Assembly (NCBI GenBank): GCA_029778945.1
Contig: JAKPBN010000382.1
Location: 764 to 64,763 of the forward strand
Direction of reading: 5' to 3'
Source: Spirochaetota bacterium
GTDB lineage: Bacteria; Spirochaetota; Spirochaetia; Treponematales; Rectinemataceae
DNA: 64,000 nucleotides
Positions 3,047-57,376 of this stretch are shown piece by piece (the stretch's first letter is position 1; every line of letters begins with the position of its first letter). The notes under the pieces were generated by a model. It ran no database searches. It worked only from the letters and a program-made list of their open reading frames with translations, and was not told the DNA's origin. Position numbers and translations under genes: made by a program.

Positions 3047-6000
3047 CTACTCATTGAGTTCTTCTGCCATGAAGGATTCGAATTCCGCCTTGTCCAAGGC
3101 GCGCAGGACTACATAGTCCCCGCCGGCAAGGCCCGCAAGGCCTGATTTCTCGAGCCTCAGCTGGCCATTGATCAGGACACGCACCGTGCCGGTCGAAGGC
3201 TGGACCTCGATCTGTATCTCGTTCCGGTCGTAGATCGACTCGGGGACAACCAGGTCCTCTATGGGAAAGAGCTGGGTGTCATAGTCCGAGCGGTAGAGCT
3301 GGAGATGGGTCGCGGCGCTGCCCAGGTGGGTCGGATCGCTCGTGAGCCAGACGAGCCAGGAGCGGCCCTCGCCATAGCCCTTGTGGGTCAGGGCGCCGGA
3401 GGCCGCGAAATGGAGGCCAAAGCCAACCCAGGCCCAGCCGGTGGACTTGGCGGTAAAGGTGTAGCGCGAGGGGCCCTTGGGGAGGCCTAGAGGGAGGATC
3501 ATCTTGGCAAAGTACTCGGTCGGCTCGAGGTGGACGGCCAGGACATCCCCGAGCTTCCAGGTGCCTACGACGGGCTTGAAGCCCCTGAAGCCCTCGGCGA
3601 GGGGGAAGGACCGGGCCAGGGCCACCGGAAGGCTGGCCGGGGCGAGGGCGGGGACTATCGGCGCCGCCTCGACTGGCCGGGCTTCCTCGGAAGCCTTGGC
3701 GACTTCGGCGACAGGCGCGAGCTGGACCGCTTCGGGAGCTGCGGGCTCCACGGCCGCGACAACTATTGGCTCCGGGACGGCGACGGGCTCTGCGATAGCG
3801 GCGGGGTCTGCGACGGCGACAGGCTCTGCCGCAGCGACGGGCTCCGCTACAGCGACGGGCTCTGCGACGGCGACAGGCTCAGTGACGGCGATGGGCTCTG
3901 TGACGGCGACAGGCTCAGTGACGGCGACAGGCTCTGCGACAGCGGCGGGGTCTGCGGCGGCGACAGGCTCAGTGACGGCGACAGGCTCTGCTGAAGCCAC
4001 AGGCTCCGCTGCGGCGACGGGCTCTTCTGCGGCCACGGGCTCCACGGCCCTTGCGACCTCAGCCAACCTGGCAGCCTCGGCTTCCTCAGCGGCTTTGGCG
4101 GCCATGGCGGCGGCTTGGGTTTCGGCGGCCTTCTGCTGCTCGGCGAGGCGCTTGGCATCGGCCGTCCTCTGGGCAGCCTCAAGGGCCGCGGCCTCGGCGG
4201 CGGCTATCTCCTCGGCGCTTGGTCCGGAATTGGCCTCGGCCGCCTGGAGGGCCGCAGCTAGGTCCTTGTCCTCCGGAACAGAGGCCAGGATGGCGGGAGG
4301 AAGGCTCGGGCCAGCCTCGGCAGGCTCGGGGCCGAGGGCGAGCGCAGTAGGCTCAGGCGGCGTTGCAGGCTCGGGCGCGGCCGCAAGCTCGGCGGGCAGG
4401 CTTGCCTCCGGCGCGGCTACAGGCTCAGCCACGGGCTCGGCCACCGGAGAGGCCGCGGGCTCGGCCACAGGCACAGGCACCGGAGAGGCCGCCGGGAGGG
4501 CTTCCTCCATCGGCTTGAGGGCTAGCCGTGCCTGGGCCCTTGGATCGGCCCAGATCGTCGTGTTCATGCGGTCGGCGAAGGACCAGGCCCGGCCCTCGCT
4601 TCCCAGCATGGAAGCCAGGTAGCCAAAGTTGGCGGCAAGCTCGGGGTTCCTCTGGGAGAGGAGCTCGTAGTCCGCATCGGACTCGCTAAAGCGCTCGAGC
4701 TCGTAGGCCGAACGCGCCCGCCCCAGGAGGGCGGTGTCCCTGGTAGGGGCAAGCTTGAAGACGTAGTCGAAGTAATTGCGGGAAAGCTCAAAATCCCGCC
4801 TCAGGAAGGCGACGTTGGCCAGGTTCGTCCAGGCATCCAGGTCCCCGGCCTTCGCGGCCAGGGAAAAGTGGGTCCAGGCCTCCTTGAGCATGCCGCTGCG
4901 GCCATAGACCATGCCCAGCTGGTTCTCGATCTCCGGGCTCTGGGGCTTGCGGGGATCCAGGGCGAGGGCCCGGATCTGGGGATCTATCTCCCGGACCACA
5001 TAGCGGTCCAGGGCCGAGTCAAAGGCCTGCATGAGCATGGCCTCCGGGGGCATGTCAAAGCGAGCGACCGAGCCGGGAATGCCCACGGAGGGGTAGAGCT
5101 TCCAGGCCTCCCTGATGGGGTAGAGCTTGGCGTCTCCCTTCTTTTCGTTGTCCGTCCACTCCTTGGCTCCGATCCGCCAGGCCTTGGCAAAGCCATCCTT
5201 GATCATGGTGATCTCTAGGGGAACCCAGACCTTGCCGTCCTGCTTGATCAGGAGGCTCTGGTCATAGAACTGCTCCTTGGCTTCCTCTTGGCTAAGCTCG
5301 AGGCGGAAGGCCATGTAGATATGCCCCGGGATGGTGATAAACGCGCATTCCACGCCCAGGGACTGGAGGAGGGAGCACATGAGGATAGACAGGTCATCGC
5401 AGTCCCCGCCCCGGAAGGTCAGGGTCTGGAAGGGGTACTGGAGGAAGTCCACCGAGCTCTCGGATGAGGTCTTGTCCACATACGAGGAGGCGGGATCCAC
5501 GACATAGTTGATGCCAAAGAGGCGCTCGGCCTCAAAGAGGCCCATGCCCAGCTGGAGGTTCCTGGAGACCCCGGGGCGGAGCCTGTCCGTCACGGTGGAC
5601 GCCACGGACTTGGCGAACCAGAGGGCCGCAGGATCGGTGGGGGAGACAAAGGCCGCCGCATGGCGGTCATCGGACCAGTTCATGGAGTTCCGATGGTAGA
5701 GCTCCAGCTCCAGGGGGAGGGAGACCGAGCGGTCGGCCCCAAAGAGGCGGTACTCGACCTTGACCGTGCCTTGGAGCTTGGCCGTGGAGGTTACGGAGAG
5801 GATGTCCTCCCCAAAGAGGGCAAGGAGGGAGACTTCCTTCTTGGCCCCGGCGGCCAAAGTGTCGAGGGTGGCGCAGACCTTGGGCTGGGACATGTACTGG
5901 GAGGAGACAAAGCTGACCTTGACGTCGTGGATGGCCTTTTCCTCGCCATTGGTCAGGACTATCGTCCCAAAGGGATTGGAGTCGTAGTAGGAATAGAAGA

Positions 6001-6646: not shown

Positions 6647-8682
6647 TCGGTGGCGCCGCCGCGGTCGGCCGCGGCGGAGGAAGCCCTGGAGGTGGAGGCG
6701 TCGACCTTTGAGGAGAGGTAGGCATAGCGGGCCGCCAGGCCCGGGTCGGCGCTCACGACCCGGCTATAGAGGCTATCGGCCTCGGCATAGGCGTCAATCT
6801 CGTACTTGGCCTTGGCCAGGCCTATCGTGGCGATCATGTTCTCCGGGTTGAGCTTGAGGGCGGCCTCAAAGAAGGTGATCGCCACCTCGTAGTCCTTCTG
6901 CAGGTAGGCCACGTTGGCCACATTGGTCAGGGCCGGGGCAAAGTCGAGCTGGGAGGCCTTCAGGAAGGCCTCCCGGGCCTTCTGGAGGAGGCCATAGCGG
7001 GCGTAGAGCACCCCGAGGCTGTTGTACTGCCTGCCCGTCCCCGCCTGGCCCATGTCGGCCAGGAGCTTCTCGGCCCTTGGCTCGAGCTCCTTGGCCACGA
7101 AGCGGCCCATGAGATTCTCGAAGGCCAGGCTAAGCGCGGCTTCCGTGGGCTTGTAGGGCTTGAACTCGAGGCCGGCCAGGCCCACGTCCTTGTGCGTCTG
7201 CCAGGCCTGGGCCAGGTCGATAAAGGTCGGAGCCCCCTGGGCCACGGCCTTCTGCCATGAGGTCGAGCCCGAGGCCCAGGCGCTCAGGAAACCCTCCCGG
7301 AGCTTGGACATCTGGAGGGGCAGCCAGACGGCGCCGTTCCGGTAGATCAGCTCATTGGGCTTGAGGAACTCGGCCCGGGCCTGGGCCTCGCCGATGGCCA
7401 GCTTGAAGGCCACCACCACATCGTCATCCAGGAGGACGAGGGCGGCCGGCACGTCGATGGAGACCAGGGTTGTCGCGAAGAGGACGCCCAGCTCGTCCGA
7501 GTCCCCGCCCTTGTAGGCCAGGGTCTGGTAGGGGTACTGGAGGTAGTCGATCTTGCTCGGATCCCGGTGGAAGCTGGCGTAGGGGGTGGAGGGATCGGGG
7601 GCGTATTTCAGGCCCAGGAGGCGCAGGGACTCAAAGAGGCCCATGCCGAACTGCAGGTTCTTGTCCAGGTCGGGCCTAAGCTTTTCCCGAATAAGGCCTA
7701 CGGCGAACTTGGAGAGGTCGAGGACCGAGGGGTCGCTCGGGGAGATAAAGGCCGCGACCAGGCTGGGGTCAGCCCAGGTCAGGGCGTTTCGGTGGAGGAT
7801 TGTCACGGGCTCGGCCCGGGTAAGCGACTGGGCGGCCCCGAGCAGCTCATAGCCTATCTTCAGGCTGCCCTGGACCTTGGTGGTCTCCGTGATGCCCAGG
7901 ATATTGTTGCCCAGGATGGCGTAGAGAGGCACCTCCGCGGACGCCCCCTTGGCCATATAGGGTATTGTCGCGCAGACGATCGACTCGGAGCTGTAATCGC
8001 CGACAAAGAAGCTCACCTTGACGTTCCTGATCTCGGCCTGCTCGGTGTTGGTTATGGTCACGCTGCCAATAGAGCGGGTGGAATAAGTCTCGTACTCGAC
8101 GGGAAAGAAGGAGTCCTTGGGCGCTCCCAGGACCTTGACCCCGGCTCCGCGCTTTCCCAGGTTGATATCCGCAAGGATGCCTAGGCCAAGAGAAGAAACC
8201 CAGGGTTCATAATACTGGAGATAATTGATATATGATGCATTTACAAGAAGGCTAAAGGATGGGGAAAGGCGATAGCCCGCGCCAAGGCTCCCCTTCCAGT
8301 AATAATCCGTGCGGCTCGAGCCGTCAAAGCTGCCCAGATAGAGGCCCCCCGAGACGGCGGCGGACAGCTTGATCCTGGGCACGGGGTAGGCATAGACCCC
8401 GAGGCCACCGCCACCGTTGAAGAACATGAGGCTTTTGCTGCTGTTGAGTATGGGCGTTACCCCGATGCCGCCTTCGACAAAGGGCGTCAGGAAATTGAAA
8501 AGGCCAAGATTTGCGGAGAATTCCGCGCCAAAGCCCGTGCTGTAGCTCGACGCGTCCCCGGGCACCAGGGCATCAACGGCCGAATGAAGGGTAAAGTCTA
8601 GAGCCCAGCCCCCGGCGCTTCCGAGCAGGAGAACCAGCGTCAGCAGGACGGCTCCAGGCCTGGAGCTTGTGCGCACCCTCAT
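6628..8682 (-). CDS. Paralog of the 3047-6646 protein: signal peptide, beta-barrel-like N-domain, transglutaminase-like fold with catalytic positions substituted (GGDSDELGVL; DDVVVAF), TPR repeats.
   Basis: ATG at 8680-8682 (MRVRTSSRPGAVLLTLVLLLGSAGG signal peptide). Domain order is shared with the downstream paralog. In the aligned motif Cys becomes Ser, His becomes Asp, and Glu becomes Gln. Confidence 0.75.
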   Translation of the reverse strand: MRVRTSSRPGAVLLTLVLLLGSAGGWALDFTLHSAVDALVPGDASSYSTGFGAEFSANLGLFNFLTPFVEGGIGVTPILNSSKSLMFFNGGGGLGVYAYPVPRIKLSAAVSGGLYLGSFDGSSRTDYYWKGSLGAGYRLSPSFSLLVNASYINYLQYYEPWVSSLGLGILADINLGKRGAGVKVLGAPKDSFFPVEYETYSTRSIGSVTITNTEQAEIRNVKVSFFVGDYSSESIVCATIPYMAKGASAEVPLYAILGNNILGITETTKVQGSLKIGYELLGAAQSLTRAEPVTILHRNALTWADPSLVAAFISPSDPSVLDLSKFAVGLIREKLRPDLDKNLQFGMGLFESLRLLGLKYAPDPSTPYASFHRDPSKIDYLQYPYQTLAYKGGDSDELGVLFATTLVSIDVPAALVLLDDDVVVAFKLAIGEAQARAEFLKPNELIYRNGAVWLPLQMSKLREGFLSAWASGSTSWQKAVAQGAPTFIDLAQAWQTHKDVGLAGLEFKPYKPTEAALSLAFENLMGRFVAKELEPRAEKLLADMGQAGTGRQYNSLGVLYARYGLLQKAREAFLKASQLDFAPALTNVANVAYLQKDYEVAITFFEAALKLNPENMIATIGLAKAKYEIDAYAEADSLYSRVVSADPGLAARYAYLSSKVDASTSRASSAAADRGGATEWDLEP

Positions 8683-9529: not shown

Positions 9530-10574
9530 CGGTCTCTTCCTTCTTCATGGACAGTTTCAGGTAGTTCCGCAGGGCGGAGTAGTCCGTCATGCCGAGGCCC
9601 AGGTTCCACTCCTTGAGCTTGTCCTTGATCTCCTGGAGTGACTTCTTGCCGAAGTTCCTGGTCTTCGCGATATCGTCCTCGGTCTTCCTCGTAAGATCGC
9701 CTATCGTCTTGATATTGGCGTTCTTCAGGCAGTTCGACGACCGGACGGAGAGCTCGAGCTCCTCCACGGGCGTGTTGAGGATCTGCCTGATCCGTTCCTC
9801 GATCTCGTCGTTTTCCTCATCGCCGTCGGACTCGCCCTCGTCAAAGTTGACGAAAATGGCGAAATGGTCCTTGGCTATCTTGGCGGCCTCGGCAAGGGCG
9901 TCCTCGGGCCGGACCGAACCGTCCGTCCAGATCTCCATCACGAGCTTGTCGTAATCGGAGCGCTGGCCGACCCGGGTGGGCTCGACCGAGTACTTCACCT
10001 TGCGCACGGGGGAGAAGATCGCGTCCATCGGTATGGTCCCGACGACCTCGACATACTTCTCGTTCACCTCGGAGGGCACATAGCCCCGGCCAAGGTCCAC
10101 CTGGATCTCCACGTCGATGCGGGCGTCGTCCATCAGGGTCGCGATCTTGATCCCGGGGTTCTGGACCTCGAGGGGCTTGTCCTTGCCGAACACGGACCCG
10201 TCTATGTCCAGGGGGCCCTTGAGCTCGTAGAGGAAGGTGGCCTGCTCCTCGTCATCCGGAAGCTTGAGCCTGAGCTGCTTCAGGTTGTTGAGCACCTCGA
10301 TGGTGTCCTCGACGATCCCGGGGATGGTCTCGAACTCGCTCGTGACGATGTGCTGGGCCCCATCCGCGTCATAGCGAACTATCCGGACCGCGGTTACCGC
10401 GTAACCCTGGATCGAAGAAAGGAGGATTCGGCGCAGCGTGTTGCCGACGGTCGTACCGTAGCCCGGCTCGAAGGGGTAAGCGAGGAACTTGCCATAGTCC
10501 TGGCTCGATTCGCTCTGCTCATACGTGATGCCCTTCGGCCTCTTGAAACCCTTGAGTAGGTTCTTCCGCGCCAT
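9519..10574 (-). CDS. rpoA: DNA-directed RNA polymerase subunit alpha.
   Basis: 351-aa translation with RpoA N- and C-terminal domain motifs. Sits between rpsD and rplQ. Confidence 0.95.
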
Positions 10575-47999: not shown

Positions 48000-48027
48000 G
48001 CGATCCTTCGCTCTGGCGAAGGATCGC
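48000..48027. repeat. Perfect 12-bp-stem hairpin (GCGATCCTTCGC-TCTG-GCGAAGGATCGC) in the rpsG 3' intergenic region.
   Basis: Read directly. Confidence 0.6.
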
Positions 48028-48053
48028 TATGGCGAACAAAGCCTTTGCCCTGC

Positions 48054-48110: not shown

Positions 48111-48581
48111 CTACCAGCGGTAGTGGGCAAAGGCCTTGTTCGCCTCGGCCATCTTGTGCGTATCTTCCTTCTTCTTCACGGCCGAGCCGGTGTTGTTGAA
48201 GGCGTCGACAAGCTCGTCGGCGAGCTTGTCGGCCATCGCCTTGCCGGAGCGGGAGCGGGCGGCGTTGATCAGCCAGCGCATGGCTAGGGCCTCGCGCCGG
48301 GTGTCGCGGATCTCGACGGGCACCTGGTAGGTCGCGCCGCCGACGCGGCGGGACTTGACCTCAACCAGGGGCTTCGAGTTCTCGATGGCCTTGTTGAAGA
48401 CGTCCAGGGCAGGAACCCCGGCCTTCTTCTCCATGGCCTCCATCGCATCATACACAATGCGGGTGCAGATGGACTTCTTGCCCTGCCACATCAGGCGGCA
48501 CACGAACTTCGTGAGGGTGATGGAATTGTACTTCGGATCCGGGAGATGCCCCCGGTCGATTGTCTTCTTTTTGCGTCCCAT
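48111..48581 (-). CDS. rpsG: 30S ribosomal protein S7.
   Basis: 156-aa translation matches S7. Confidence 0.95.
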
Positions 48582-49119: not shown

Positions 49120-53484
<4,365 letters not shown>

Positions 53485-53533
53485 ATCAGTCCCCCCTCAT
53501 CGAGTCGACTTGGGCAAAATGTACCTTGTTATC

Positions 53534-53714
53534 AATCACCACGGAGATCAGGGATGGAAGACGGAGATCACGGAGACTTCGCAGGGAAAGGCGGTTCGAG
53601 AAGGAAACTACGTTCATGATTCCCTTCTTCCTTTCTCCCACTCTTGTCTTCCTCCGTGATCTCCGTGTCGACCGGCCCAAAACGGGCCGGTCCTCCGTGG
53701 CTCCGTGGTGAATC
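53534..53714 (-). promoter_or_regulatory. Structured rpoB-rpoC intercistronic spacer: CACGGAG motifs (53540, 53569; ACGGAG 53561) on the left and four CTCCGTG motifs (53652, 53661, 53693, 53701) on the right, able to form long-range duplexes.
   Basis: Motif positions read directly. The spacer is 243 nt, unusually long for rpoB-rpoC. Confidence 0.45.
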
Positions 53715-53727
53715 GTATAGATGCCTT

Positions 53728-57219
<3,492 letters not shown>

Positions 57220-57354: not shown

Positions 57355-57376
57355 GCAAAAACGGCCCCTCGGGGGC
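57355..57376 (-). terminator. Candidate rplL-rpoB attenuator: GC hairpin (GCCCC-CGA-GGGGC) followed by CGUUUUUGCG. Two more GCCCCUC-type hairpins lie nearby (57392-57414, 57421-57431).
   Basis: Read directly. The position is analogous to the known rplL-rpoB attenuator in other bacteria. Confidence 0.4.

Follow-up and report, generated by a model that had tools for sequence, protein, structure and literature searches.

A tandem-heptamer hairpin between rpoB and rpoC of a spirochaete, probably a copy of a dispersed palindromic repeat found at phage gene junctions

Repetitive extragenic palindromic (REP) sequences, bacterial interspersed mosaic elements (BIMEs) and enterobacterial repetitive intergenic consensus (ERIC) sequences are imperfect palindromes of enterobacteria that lie between co-transcribed genes or after stop codons; their hairpins can stabilise upstream mRNA, and their presence varies (cf. 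review PMC2229807). The Correia elements of Neisseria (CREE/NEMIS) are intergenic sequences of ~100–150 bp with terminal inverted repeats, present in many copies and often co-transcribed, with hairpins to which RNase III binds and which it either cuts or protects (PMC2649163, PMC2229807). In Cluster K mycobacteriophages, the start-associated sequence (SAS), a 13-bp motif repeated just upstream of start codons, holds the ribosome-binding site and has an extended form (ESAS) with inverted repeats (PMC3203893). Here we describe a 177-nt palindrome with arms of tandem CACGGAG heptamers in the 243-nt rpoB-rpoC spacer of a Spirochaetota bacterium (Rectinemataceae; assembly GCA_029778945.1, contig JAKPBN010000382.1), within a 64,000-nt stretch of DNA that we call the window and number from its first letter. 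Judged by its sequence, the element belongs to a family of heptamer-array hairpins in phage contigs, and the spacer probably holds a degenerate, vertically inherited copy of this dispersed intergenic repeat, which resembles REP sequences and MITEs (miniature inverted-repeat transposable elements) and would be co-transcribed as a looped-out hairpin.

Like Correia elements, the members of this family are small and intergenic, have terminal inverted repeats and form a long hairpin. Whereas Correia elements have a conserved core, an IHF site and a TA duplication, the cores of the heptamer family are unrelated and no duplication was seen; moreover, the arms consist of tandem heptamers that vary in number and flavour, and the hosts are phages, spirochaetes and Acidobacteriota (the last with solo arrays only). 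REP, BIME and ERIC sequences likewise place a palindrome between co-transcribed genes and vary in presence among relatives, but REPs are single 20–40-nt palindromes linked to RAYT transposases and ERIC is a conserved 127-bp sequence, whereas the present family combines tandem-heptamer arms, a free core and arms resembling Shine-Dalgarno sequences. Solo arms resemble SAS in that a short cassette is repeated before phage start codons; unlike SAS, a single motif of one phage cluster, the heptamers form tandem arrays, more often occur as an inward-facing inverted pair, and are found in very different hosts. Foldback (FB) transposons of Drosophila and other eukaryotes have long inverted repeats of tandem short units around a variable centre, are kilobase-scale and, in some copies, have a transposase partner. 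The heptamer family resembles them in architecture only, with no evidence of an evolutionary link.

In the window, rpoB and rpoC are both on the minus strand, so the spacer (53485–53727) has to be read as its reverse complement. The features, from rpoB to rpoC, and what each rests on, are:

53728..57219, minus strand: rpoB, beta subunit, 1163 aa (NCBIfam equivalog TIGR02013, E = 0; list of open reading frames, ORFs)
53730-53728, minus strand: rpoB stop codon TAA (ORF list)
53713..53727, minus strand: linker of 15 nt from the rpoB stop to the TTCAC terminus (sequence and coordinates)
53536..53712, minus strand: whole palindromic element, 177 nt, TTCAC-CACGGAG ... CTCCGTG-GTGA (fold, ladder drawing, phage-arm profile match)
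53651..53711, minus strand: 5′ arm, with CACGGAG at 53707-01, 53699-93, 53667-61 and 53658-52, each with GGAG (repeat and motif positions)
53670..53692, minus strand: GC hairpin GACCGGCCC-GUUUU-GGGCCGGUC (as DNA, GACCGGCCC-GTTTT-GGGCCGGTC) between 5′-arm units 2 and 3 (inverted repeat 9/9 complementary; fold)
53577..53650, minus strand: core, 74 nt, whose purine-rich 5′ half pairs with a pyrimidine-rich 3′ half around an apical loop (fold)
53536..53576, minus strand: 3′ arm, with CUCCGUG at 53575-69, CUCCGU at 53566-61, degenerate CUUCCAUCCCUGAU, and CUCCGUG-GUGA at 53546-36 (sequence)
53486..53617, minus strand: ORF of 43 codons, probably non-coding; it begins at an apical AUG, crosses the 3′ arm and stops 1 nt short of the rpoC AUG (sequence)
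53485..53535, minus strand: tail of 51 nt that leads up to the rpoC AUG (four relatives, aligned and folded as a consensus)
49120..53484, minus strand: rpoC, beta′ subunit, 1454 aa (NCBIfam equivalog TIGR02386, E = 0)

An earlier sequence-only reading of this DNA had called the spacer unusually long, and its 243 nt do fall in about the top 5% of 141 diverse rpoB-rpoC spacers (approximate; median 45 nt, 95th percentile 207). The opposed arrays that it described are also present: on the plus strand, CACGGAG at 53540 and 53569 and ACGGAG at 53561 face CTCCGTG at 53652, 53661, 53693 and 53701. Its left-to-right layout holds for that strand but is reversed in the transcript, where four CACGGAG units occupy the 5′ part of the spacer and two CUCCGUG and one CUCCGU the 3′ part, in the order TTCAC-CACGGAG-C-CACGGAG, GC hairpin, CACGGAG-AU-CACGGAG, core, CUCCGUG-AU-CUCCGU, degenerate stretch, CUCCGUG-GUGA. 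The units are spaced regularly, 8–9 nt apart. Although the heptamer is not enriched over the window as a whole (19 matches versus 13.3 ± 3.8 expected), 6 of the 19 fall within the 243-nt spacer, and the 15-mer of the 53561–53575 arm is unique within the 64 kb.

The mRNA strand of the spacer is predicted to fold at −106.9 kcal/mol, versus −80.4 ± 5.2 for 200 dinucleotide shuffles, none of which was as good (z = −5.1), which supports an RNA-capable element with strong structure. Both quoted pairings exist, that of 53536–53546 with 53701–53711 at 11/11 and that of 53561–53575 with 53652–53666, across 76 nt, at 15/15 rather than the 15/16 first claimed. The minimum-energy fold is one nested modular hairpin (spacer positions 17–192, 176 nt) and not obviously the mutually exclusive helices that had been envisioned, although the repeated units do permit register shifts. 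The stem begins 16 nt past the rpoB stop, compared with 4–10 nt in relatives. The GC hairpin in the 5′ arm looks like a second small palindrome inserted there; since similar palindromes, GGACCGCGG...CCGCGGTCC, form the cores of phage elements (L299 2706–2817, L308 9404–9515; loci are given by our numbers), this suggests that palindromes nest within palindromes.

Downstream of the hairpin, the tail contains the rpoC Shine-Dalgarno sequence GAGGGGGG (53498–53491, minus strand), the first Gs of which pair in a mini-hairpin, CCC..RUC.....GAU..GGG, at 53514–53494 (minus strand); this mini-hairpin is invariant, with no covariation, in the window and in the relatives L165, L166 and L082 described below. 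A promoter and terminator scan found no promoter-like or terminator-like site on the mRNA strand of the spacer. An intrinsic terminator or attenuator would require a GC-rich stem with a U-run directly after it, a combination absent from the minus strand of the spacer, where GAUUGAUAAC comes after the hairpin. Searching Rfam with window positions 53300–53900 gave a best match of 21 bits, compared with a gathering threshold of 55.

The same arms occur at many gene junctions of phages. An initial scan of viral contigs for two adjacent CACGGAG units returned opposed arrays in unrelated contigs, and the 17-base terminus CACCACGGAGNCACGGAG (TTCAC-CACGGAG-N-CACGGAG) was found in 91 stretches of viral contigs versus 1 for a reversed, composition-matched control. 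Both termini are exact in 26 phage elements; a relaxed definition yields 218 unique elements in these contigs. Their arms are constant, with the form (TT)CACCACGGAG-R-CACGGAG-N0-2-CACGGAG and its reverse complement, while the core changes completely from locus to locus. Arms are separated by a median of 90 nt (interquartile range 54–142 nt), with a few gaps gene-sized (425–730 nt). With their genes for terminase, tail and baseplate proteins, the contigs are genuine phages, and they include many soil and peat phages. Within them the elements are intergenic, mostly 4–70 nt from ORF ends, and number up to 5–8 per 11–12-kb contig.

The window element conforms to this family. It carries TTCACCACGGAGCCACGGAG at 53712–53693 and CTCCGTGGTGA at 53546–53536, and the 11-nt termini of one phage element, TCACCACGGAG/CTCCGTGGTGA in L233, are identical to its own. 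A profile hidden Markov model (nhmmer) built from 122 phage arms, with the window element excluded, matched 53714–53688 with E = 2.9e-6 in 165 kb; its other matches in the window were weaker and fell only at the three remaining arm positions of the same spacer. The profile also matched both arms of L082, a spirochaete locus considered below. In addition, the window element is intergenic near the upstream stop, has a core of its own and folds as one long hairpin. We therefore define the family by an arm of (TT)CAC plus 2–4 tandem CRCRGAG heptamers set 1–2 nt apart, a second arm that is the reverse complement of the first, and a core that varies from copy to copy. As these arms recur at so many phage gene junctions, the rpoBC element is probably not a polymerase-specific control element.

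This family is apparently not catalogued in Rfam, cultured-phage records or the searchable literature. Rfam searches with seven phage loci gave only sub-threshold matches to plant miRNA hairpins, an arm query found no match in the cultured-phage records of INPHARED, and a full-text search for double-heptamer arm strings and a 2024 MITE review each yielded no description of such an element. Among PLSDB plasmids, the arm query matched only a Burkholderia head-to-tail octamer microsatellite with no opposed array. In Burkholderia stagnalis (L371 1380–1530; NZ_CP156686.1, about position 2,487,000), a microsatellite of ACACGCAG/ACACGGAG octamers has ~18 units, with 13 matching places in the replicon. 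A viral locus, L263 (1–140), has a long head-to-tail array of CCACGGAG/CCACAGAG octamers, probably of at least 15 units, from base 2 of the locus.

Phage elements come in several flavours. Classed by the majority unit of the 5′ arm, the main ones are CACGGAG (66), CGCAGAG (57), CGCGGAG (26), CACGAAG (22) and CACAGAG (20). Several flavours can coexist in one phage contig. The two arms share a flavour in 128 of the 218 elements, versus about 40 expected (maximum 56 in 1000 shuffles). CGCAGAG elements follow the same logic at their termini (TTCAC|CGCAGAG...CTCTGCG|GTGAA) and can nest with CGCGGAG arms. Cores often contain further opposed arrays of other short units, and some arm pairs tightly enclose small genes of 56–142 codons. 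Arrays of CGCGAAT, a unit discussed below, are also found in viral contigs, where 62 stretches include only about five clear hairpins. Besides the pairs, there are 94 solo 5′ arrays; in roughly a quarter an ORF of at least 60 codons begins within about 25 nt downstream, and many of these place their last GGAG at Shine-Dalgarno distance from the start codon. Solo arms serve as Shine-Dalgarno cassettes ahead of start codons. As for the flanks of the elements, they prolong the stem through U residues 5′ and A residues 3′ (the A-rich 3′ flank is family-wide), a pattern that does not fit a terminator.

Comparison of related phages shows that elements are gained, lost or resized at orthologous junctions. 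At the same junction the element may be present, shortened or absent, or a different palindrome may be found, and the empty state is a compact overlap of stop, Shine-Dalgarno and start; for example, the elements at L494 4988–5096 and L480 4522–4688 are absent from the same junction in related phages. The different palindromes, carried where other phages have heptamer elements, are of the ACAGGCCCTCCCC...GCGGGAGGGG type (L462 ~7127–7149 and ~7552–7634, L448 ~4815–4843, L494 ~4548–4579, L526 ~5373–5467). Three CGCAGAG-flavour cores (L494 4988–5096, L480 4522–4688 and L538 ~9949–10124) contain a GC stem, GGCGGCTTTGCCGCC, followed by a T-run (TTTTTCTT in L494 and L480, TTCTTCTT in L538), and thus a terminator-like hairpin enclosed by the arms.

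How is the element distributed among relatives of the window bacterium? The nearest beta′ and beta sequences are from named Spirochaetales, Spirochaetia or Treponema. Three near relatives have the hairpin at the same place, in spacers of 184, 207 and 164 nt: L165 and L166, from digester and wetland samples, which are 96% and 95% identical to the window over the beta C terminus, and L082, 93% identical over the beta′ N terminus. Their common layout is a 5′ heptamer array, a purine-rich run, a pyrimidine-rich run, a 3′ array and the conserved tail GCCCnAnUCGA..GAUGAGGGGGAG; all are predicted to fold into modular hairpins with helices of 7–18 bp and bulges of 1–3 nt (z from −3.8 to −7.0). Their cores have diverged strongly, with many indels, and have in common the purine-rich stretch adjoining the 5′ arm. 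The heptamer is unchanged in L082 (CACGGAG/CUCCGUG). In L166, CGCAGAG ×3 faces CUCUGCG ×3, such that in every unit of both arms the A-U pair at position 2 has become G-C and the G-C pair at position 4 has become A-U; these are two compensatory transitions across all units. L165 contains intermediates, since it mixes CACGGAG and CACAGAG with CUCCGUG and CUCUGUG and so forms G·U pairs.

Covariation in relatives, proposed earlier as a check, therefore supports the hairpin, which is kept while its sequence changes in a compensatory manner. RNAalifold counted double changes at 7 of 24 pairs; as MAFFT alignments of whole spacers were poor, due to differing unit numbers, we use these only as supporting counts. 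Between species, 69–81% of hairpin nucleotides are paired despite 30–70 indel columns, and in the flanking rpoB the window, L165 and L166 are only 0.70–0.75 identical at third codon positions. Each of the 5 rpoBC copies folds more stably on the sense strand than on the antisense strand, and their main stems contain ~21 G·U pairs versus 3 A·C oppositions. An assembly or amplification artefact was rejected, as diverged versions of the hairpin occupy this site in four assemblies that are independent and differ in source. One metagenome contig, from a 95%-identical relative, stops 22 nt upstream of the rpoC AUG (L081 1–22); this end may be an assembly break inside the repeat-rich spacer.

Other relatives lack the element. 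Within the same clade, as placed by a rough tree, L168 has a 13-nt spacer, while L083, L167 and L087 have unrelated GC-rich hairpins at the junction; clade spacers without a heptamer-array element measure 155, ~90 and 13 nt. Among more distant relatives, spacers of L084, L085 and L086 are 11–33 nt, and in three Treponema-like loci rpoB and rpoC overlap by 8 nt. Since some relatives keep the hairpin and others have short spacers or overlapping genes, it is maintained where present but dispensable for the operon. The sequence-only reading had held that short, unstructured spacers in relatives lacking the heptamers would count against its interpretation, and half of this came about, in the 11–17-nt spacers and overlapping genes of close relatives.

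These comparisons bear on whether the hairpin is a dedicated rpoBC regulatory RNA, that is, a site for RNase III or another endonuclease that separates the rpoB and rpoC messages, or a device that tunes rpoC translation, with the repeats serving just to build the stem. A long, stable sense-strand hairpin at a conserved position, with compensatory changes, a G·U bias and an adjoining conserved tail whose mini-hairpin is close to the Shine-Dalgarno sequence, would suit such a role. In E. coli, RNase III acts in the rplL-rpoB spacer, and hairpins between genes of one transcript, as in the T7 intergenic sites, are RNase III substrates to which the element is comparable in placement. The E. coli rplJL-rpoBC transcript undergoes processing according to Barry et al. 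1980 as cited in PMC5371410, and RNase III is known to bind Correia elements, with cleavage or protection as the outcome (PMC2649163). The E. coli site is in the same ribosomal-protein/RNA polymerase operon (Barry et al. 1980, again as cited in PMC5371410), whereas the window element is at rpoB-rpoC; the T7 and E. coli sites are shorter, with defined internal loops and demonstrated cleavage, whereas the window element is known from its sequence and predicted fold. With 16 and 11 consecutive pairs in two helices that are coaxial with others, it does reach the duplex length of an RNase III site (about two turns or more). We nevertheless consider a dedicated regulator unlikely: identical arms occur at hundreds of unrelated phage junctions and a same-unit array in an Acidobacteriota contig, so that the earlier idea of a device specific to rpoBC does not hold up; same-clade relatives on the rough tree have a 13-nt spacer or unrelated hairpins; and the 1:1 stoichiometry of beta and beta′ creates no obvious need for decoupling.

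A second alternative is that the hairpin grew in place, a short stem by the rpoC ribosome-binding region having expanded through tandem duplication and quasipalindrome (template-switch) correction, with the likeness to phage arms arising by convergence because GGAG-rich units are favoured near gene starts. Unit numbers do differ between arms and species (4 versus 3 for the 5′ and 3′ arms in the window, 2 versus 3 in L165), phage cores contain additional opposed arrays built from other units, L263 and Burkholderia have the same octamer in plain head-to-tail arrays, and template switching is known both to produce hairpins and to mend them (PMC8794818, PMC7202029). In addition, L001 and L163 build the same architecture from unrelated units. 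L001 has a 120-nt spacer in which CGCGAAU ×3 faces AUUCGCG ×3, and L163, an Acidobacteriota contig whose beta′ is 82% identical to that of a named Acidobacteriota locus, has an opposed-array hairpin of ATCAGGA units in its own rpoB-rpoC spacer (2840–2935; z = −4.05) as well as four CCACGGAG-type units ~35 nt past the rpoC stop (7202–7236). Still, growth in place is rather improbable, since the non-repeat termini (TTCAC...GTGAA) and the unit spacing agree with the phage consensus, the profile match has E = 2.9e-6, and presence and absence in phages resemble insertion of whole elements with extra flanking sequence.

Several observations weigh against our preferred reading of the spacer as a tolerated copy of a dispersed repeat. 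Of the tests for a prokaryotic MITE, the element has terminal inverted repeats (perfect over 11 nt), a size of 177 nt (under about 500 bp), and insertion polymorphism, seen as filled and empty phage junctions (L494, L480) and as 13–17-nt rpoB-rpoC spacers in relatives. However, it lacks a target-site duplication and shared internal sequence: neither beside the window copy nor beside the 26 exact phage copies is there a direct repeat, their flanks only extending the palindrome as TT...AA, and, unlike classical MITEs, the copies have no common core, only the arms being common to them. No partner transposase turned up, though no systematic search was made. The window contains a single copy, and there is none in the other 10 kb of L082. 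Because unrelated units occupy the same junction in L001 (CGCGAAT) and L163 (ATCAGGA), growth in situ is possible. Compensatory changes can arise by template switching without selection (PMC8794818), and the sense bias of the rpoBC copies could have another source, either C-to-T mutation associated with transcription or the common ancestry of four of the five.

The phage copies add a further difficulty. Among 28 of them located between co-directional ORFs, the sense strand was more stable in 11 and the antisense strand in 17, and G·U pairs numbered 105 versus 127. Given this lack of strand bias, an RNA-level role is not a property of the family, which behaves family-wide as a symmetric DNA palindrome, and we dropped family-wide selection on sense RNA as an explanation. 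The orientation of phage copies relative to genes was also set aside as meaningless, the arms being identical on both strands.

Could the heptamers instead be binding sites for a sequence-specific protein on RNA or DNA, such as a CsrA-like protein (ANGGA) or a repressor or partition protein on heptamer iterons? CACGGAG contains ACGGA and GGAG, the units are regularly spaced by 8–9 nt, and solo arrays occur upstream of phage genes. Yet the sister species represented by L166 has CGCAGAG, which lacks GGA, L001 has CGCGAAT, the heptamer varies between elements of one phage contig, the same architecture is built from unrelated units, and the motifs are base-paired in the hairpin rather than exposed. 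A protein-binding array, which the sequence-only reading had entertained, is thus disfavoured and in our view highly improbable.

Equally remote is a relay through a small upstream ORF, in which a frame of 33–43 codons running from near the apex through the 3′ arm, and ending at or before the mini-hairpin that masks the rpoC Shine-Dalgarno sequence, couples translation upstream to initiation at rpoC. In each of the four spirochaete copies, a purine-rich, Shine-Dalgarno-like run precedes an AUG, from which a frame is open through the 3′ arm; it ends 1 nt short of the rpoC AUG in the window and in L082, and in L165 and L166 no more than a few nt from the mini-hairpin GCCC. Some phage elements enclose real small genes. 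However, the ORFs of 33–43 codons in L165, L166 and L082 conserve neither peptide sequence nor reading frame with that of the window, the AUGs lie inside paired regions, and a stop-free frame is expected by chance because the pyrimidine-rich arm lacks stop codons by composition.

If the spacer does hold a copy of the dispersed repeat, we envision that it arrived between rpoB and rpoC, until then a compact junction, in the ancestor of a small clade of spirochaetes. The element would be co-transcribed with rpoBC, since the spacer has no promoter-like or terminator-like site, and ~176 nt of the transcript would fold into a modular hairpin of 7–16-bp helices and small bulges that loops out the extra RNA. 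Folding would also hide the four Shine-Dalgarno-like GGAG units of the 5′ arm, leaving rpoC to be translated from its own conserved, strong Shine-Dalgarno sequence ~50 nt downstream. What preserves complementarity may be selection, disfavouring an unfolded insert in an essential operon, or template-switch correction, or the two together; the maintained pairing and the sense-strand excess of G·U pairs fit selection against an unfolded insert in a highly expressed operon. Any effect on expression would be that of a generic intercistronic hairpin, likely an RNase III substrate or an exonuclease barrier, rather than of a dedicated polymerase regulator. By analogy with Correia elements, the long duplex is a plausible RNase III substrate (PMC2649163).

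Two other structures are present in the window. In the rplL-rpoB spacer, a terminator-like hairpin, GCCCCCGAGGGGC, followed by CGUUUUUGCG, is located at 57364–57376 (minus strand). The E. coli attenuator also sits in the rplL-rpoB spacer. Farther along, a 29-nt inverted repeat (48022–48050 and 48125–48153, 83% complementary, arms 74 nt apart) surrounds the 3′ end of a 156-codon ORF (48111–48581, minus strand).

For the rpoBC operon, the best reading of the long spacer is a repeat insertion that has been tolerated or domesticated, and not a conserved control element of the polymerase; this guards against over-interpreting the covariation at this junction. In a more speculative reading, less likely than not, the element would represent a large and so far undescribed class of “array-hairpin” cassettes, found at gene boundaries in phages and in bacteria of several phyla and marking them. 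The arms of this class may double as Shine-Dalgarno cassettes, evolve in concert, diversify into mutually non-pairing flavours and enclose anything from a loop to a small gene. If so, such a class would imply either a dedicated route by which the cassettes are made or moved, such as foldback-type transposition or templated repeat addition, or a general RNA-level mechanism for insulating or processing neighbouring cistrons.

The interest of the element lies mainly in its family and less in a special structure at rpoBC. Constant tandem-heptamer arms, copy-specific cores, flavours that differ within one genome and arms that double as ribosome-binding cassettes are an unusual combination. At several copies per 10 kb, the family is frequent enough in phage contigs from the environment to interfere with gene calling and, because contigs can break in the element, with assembly, and it may affect our understanding of operon expression in such phages. 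It also offers a natural system in which hairpin complementarity kept by selection can be set against that produced by template-switch mutation.

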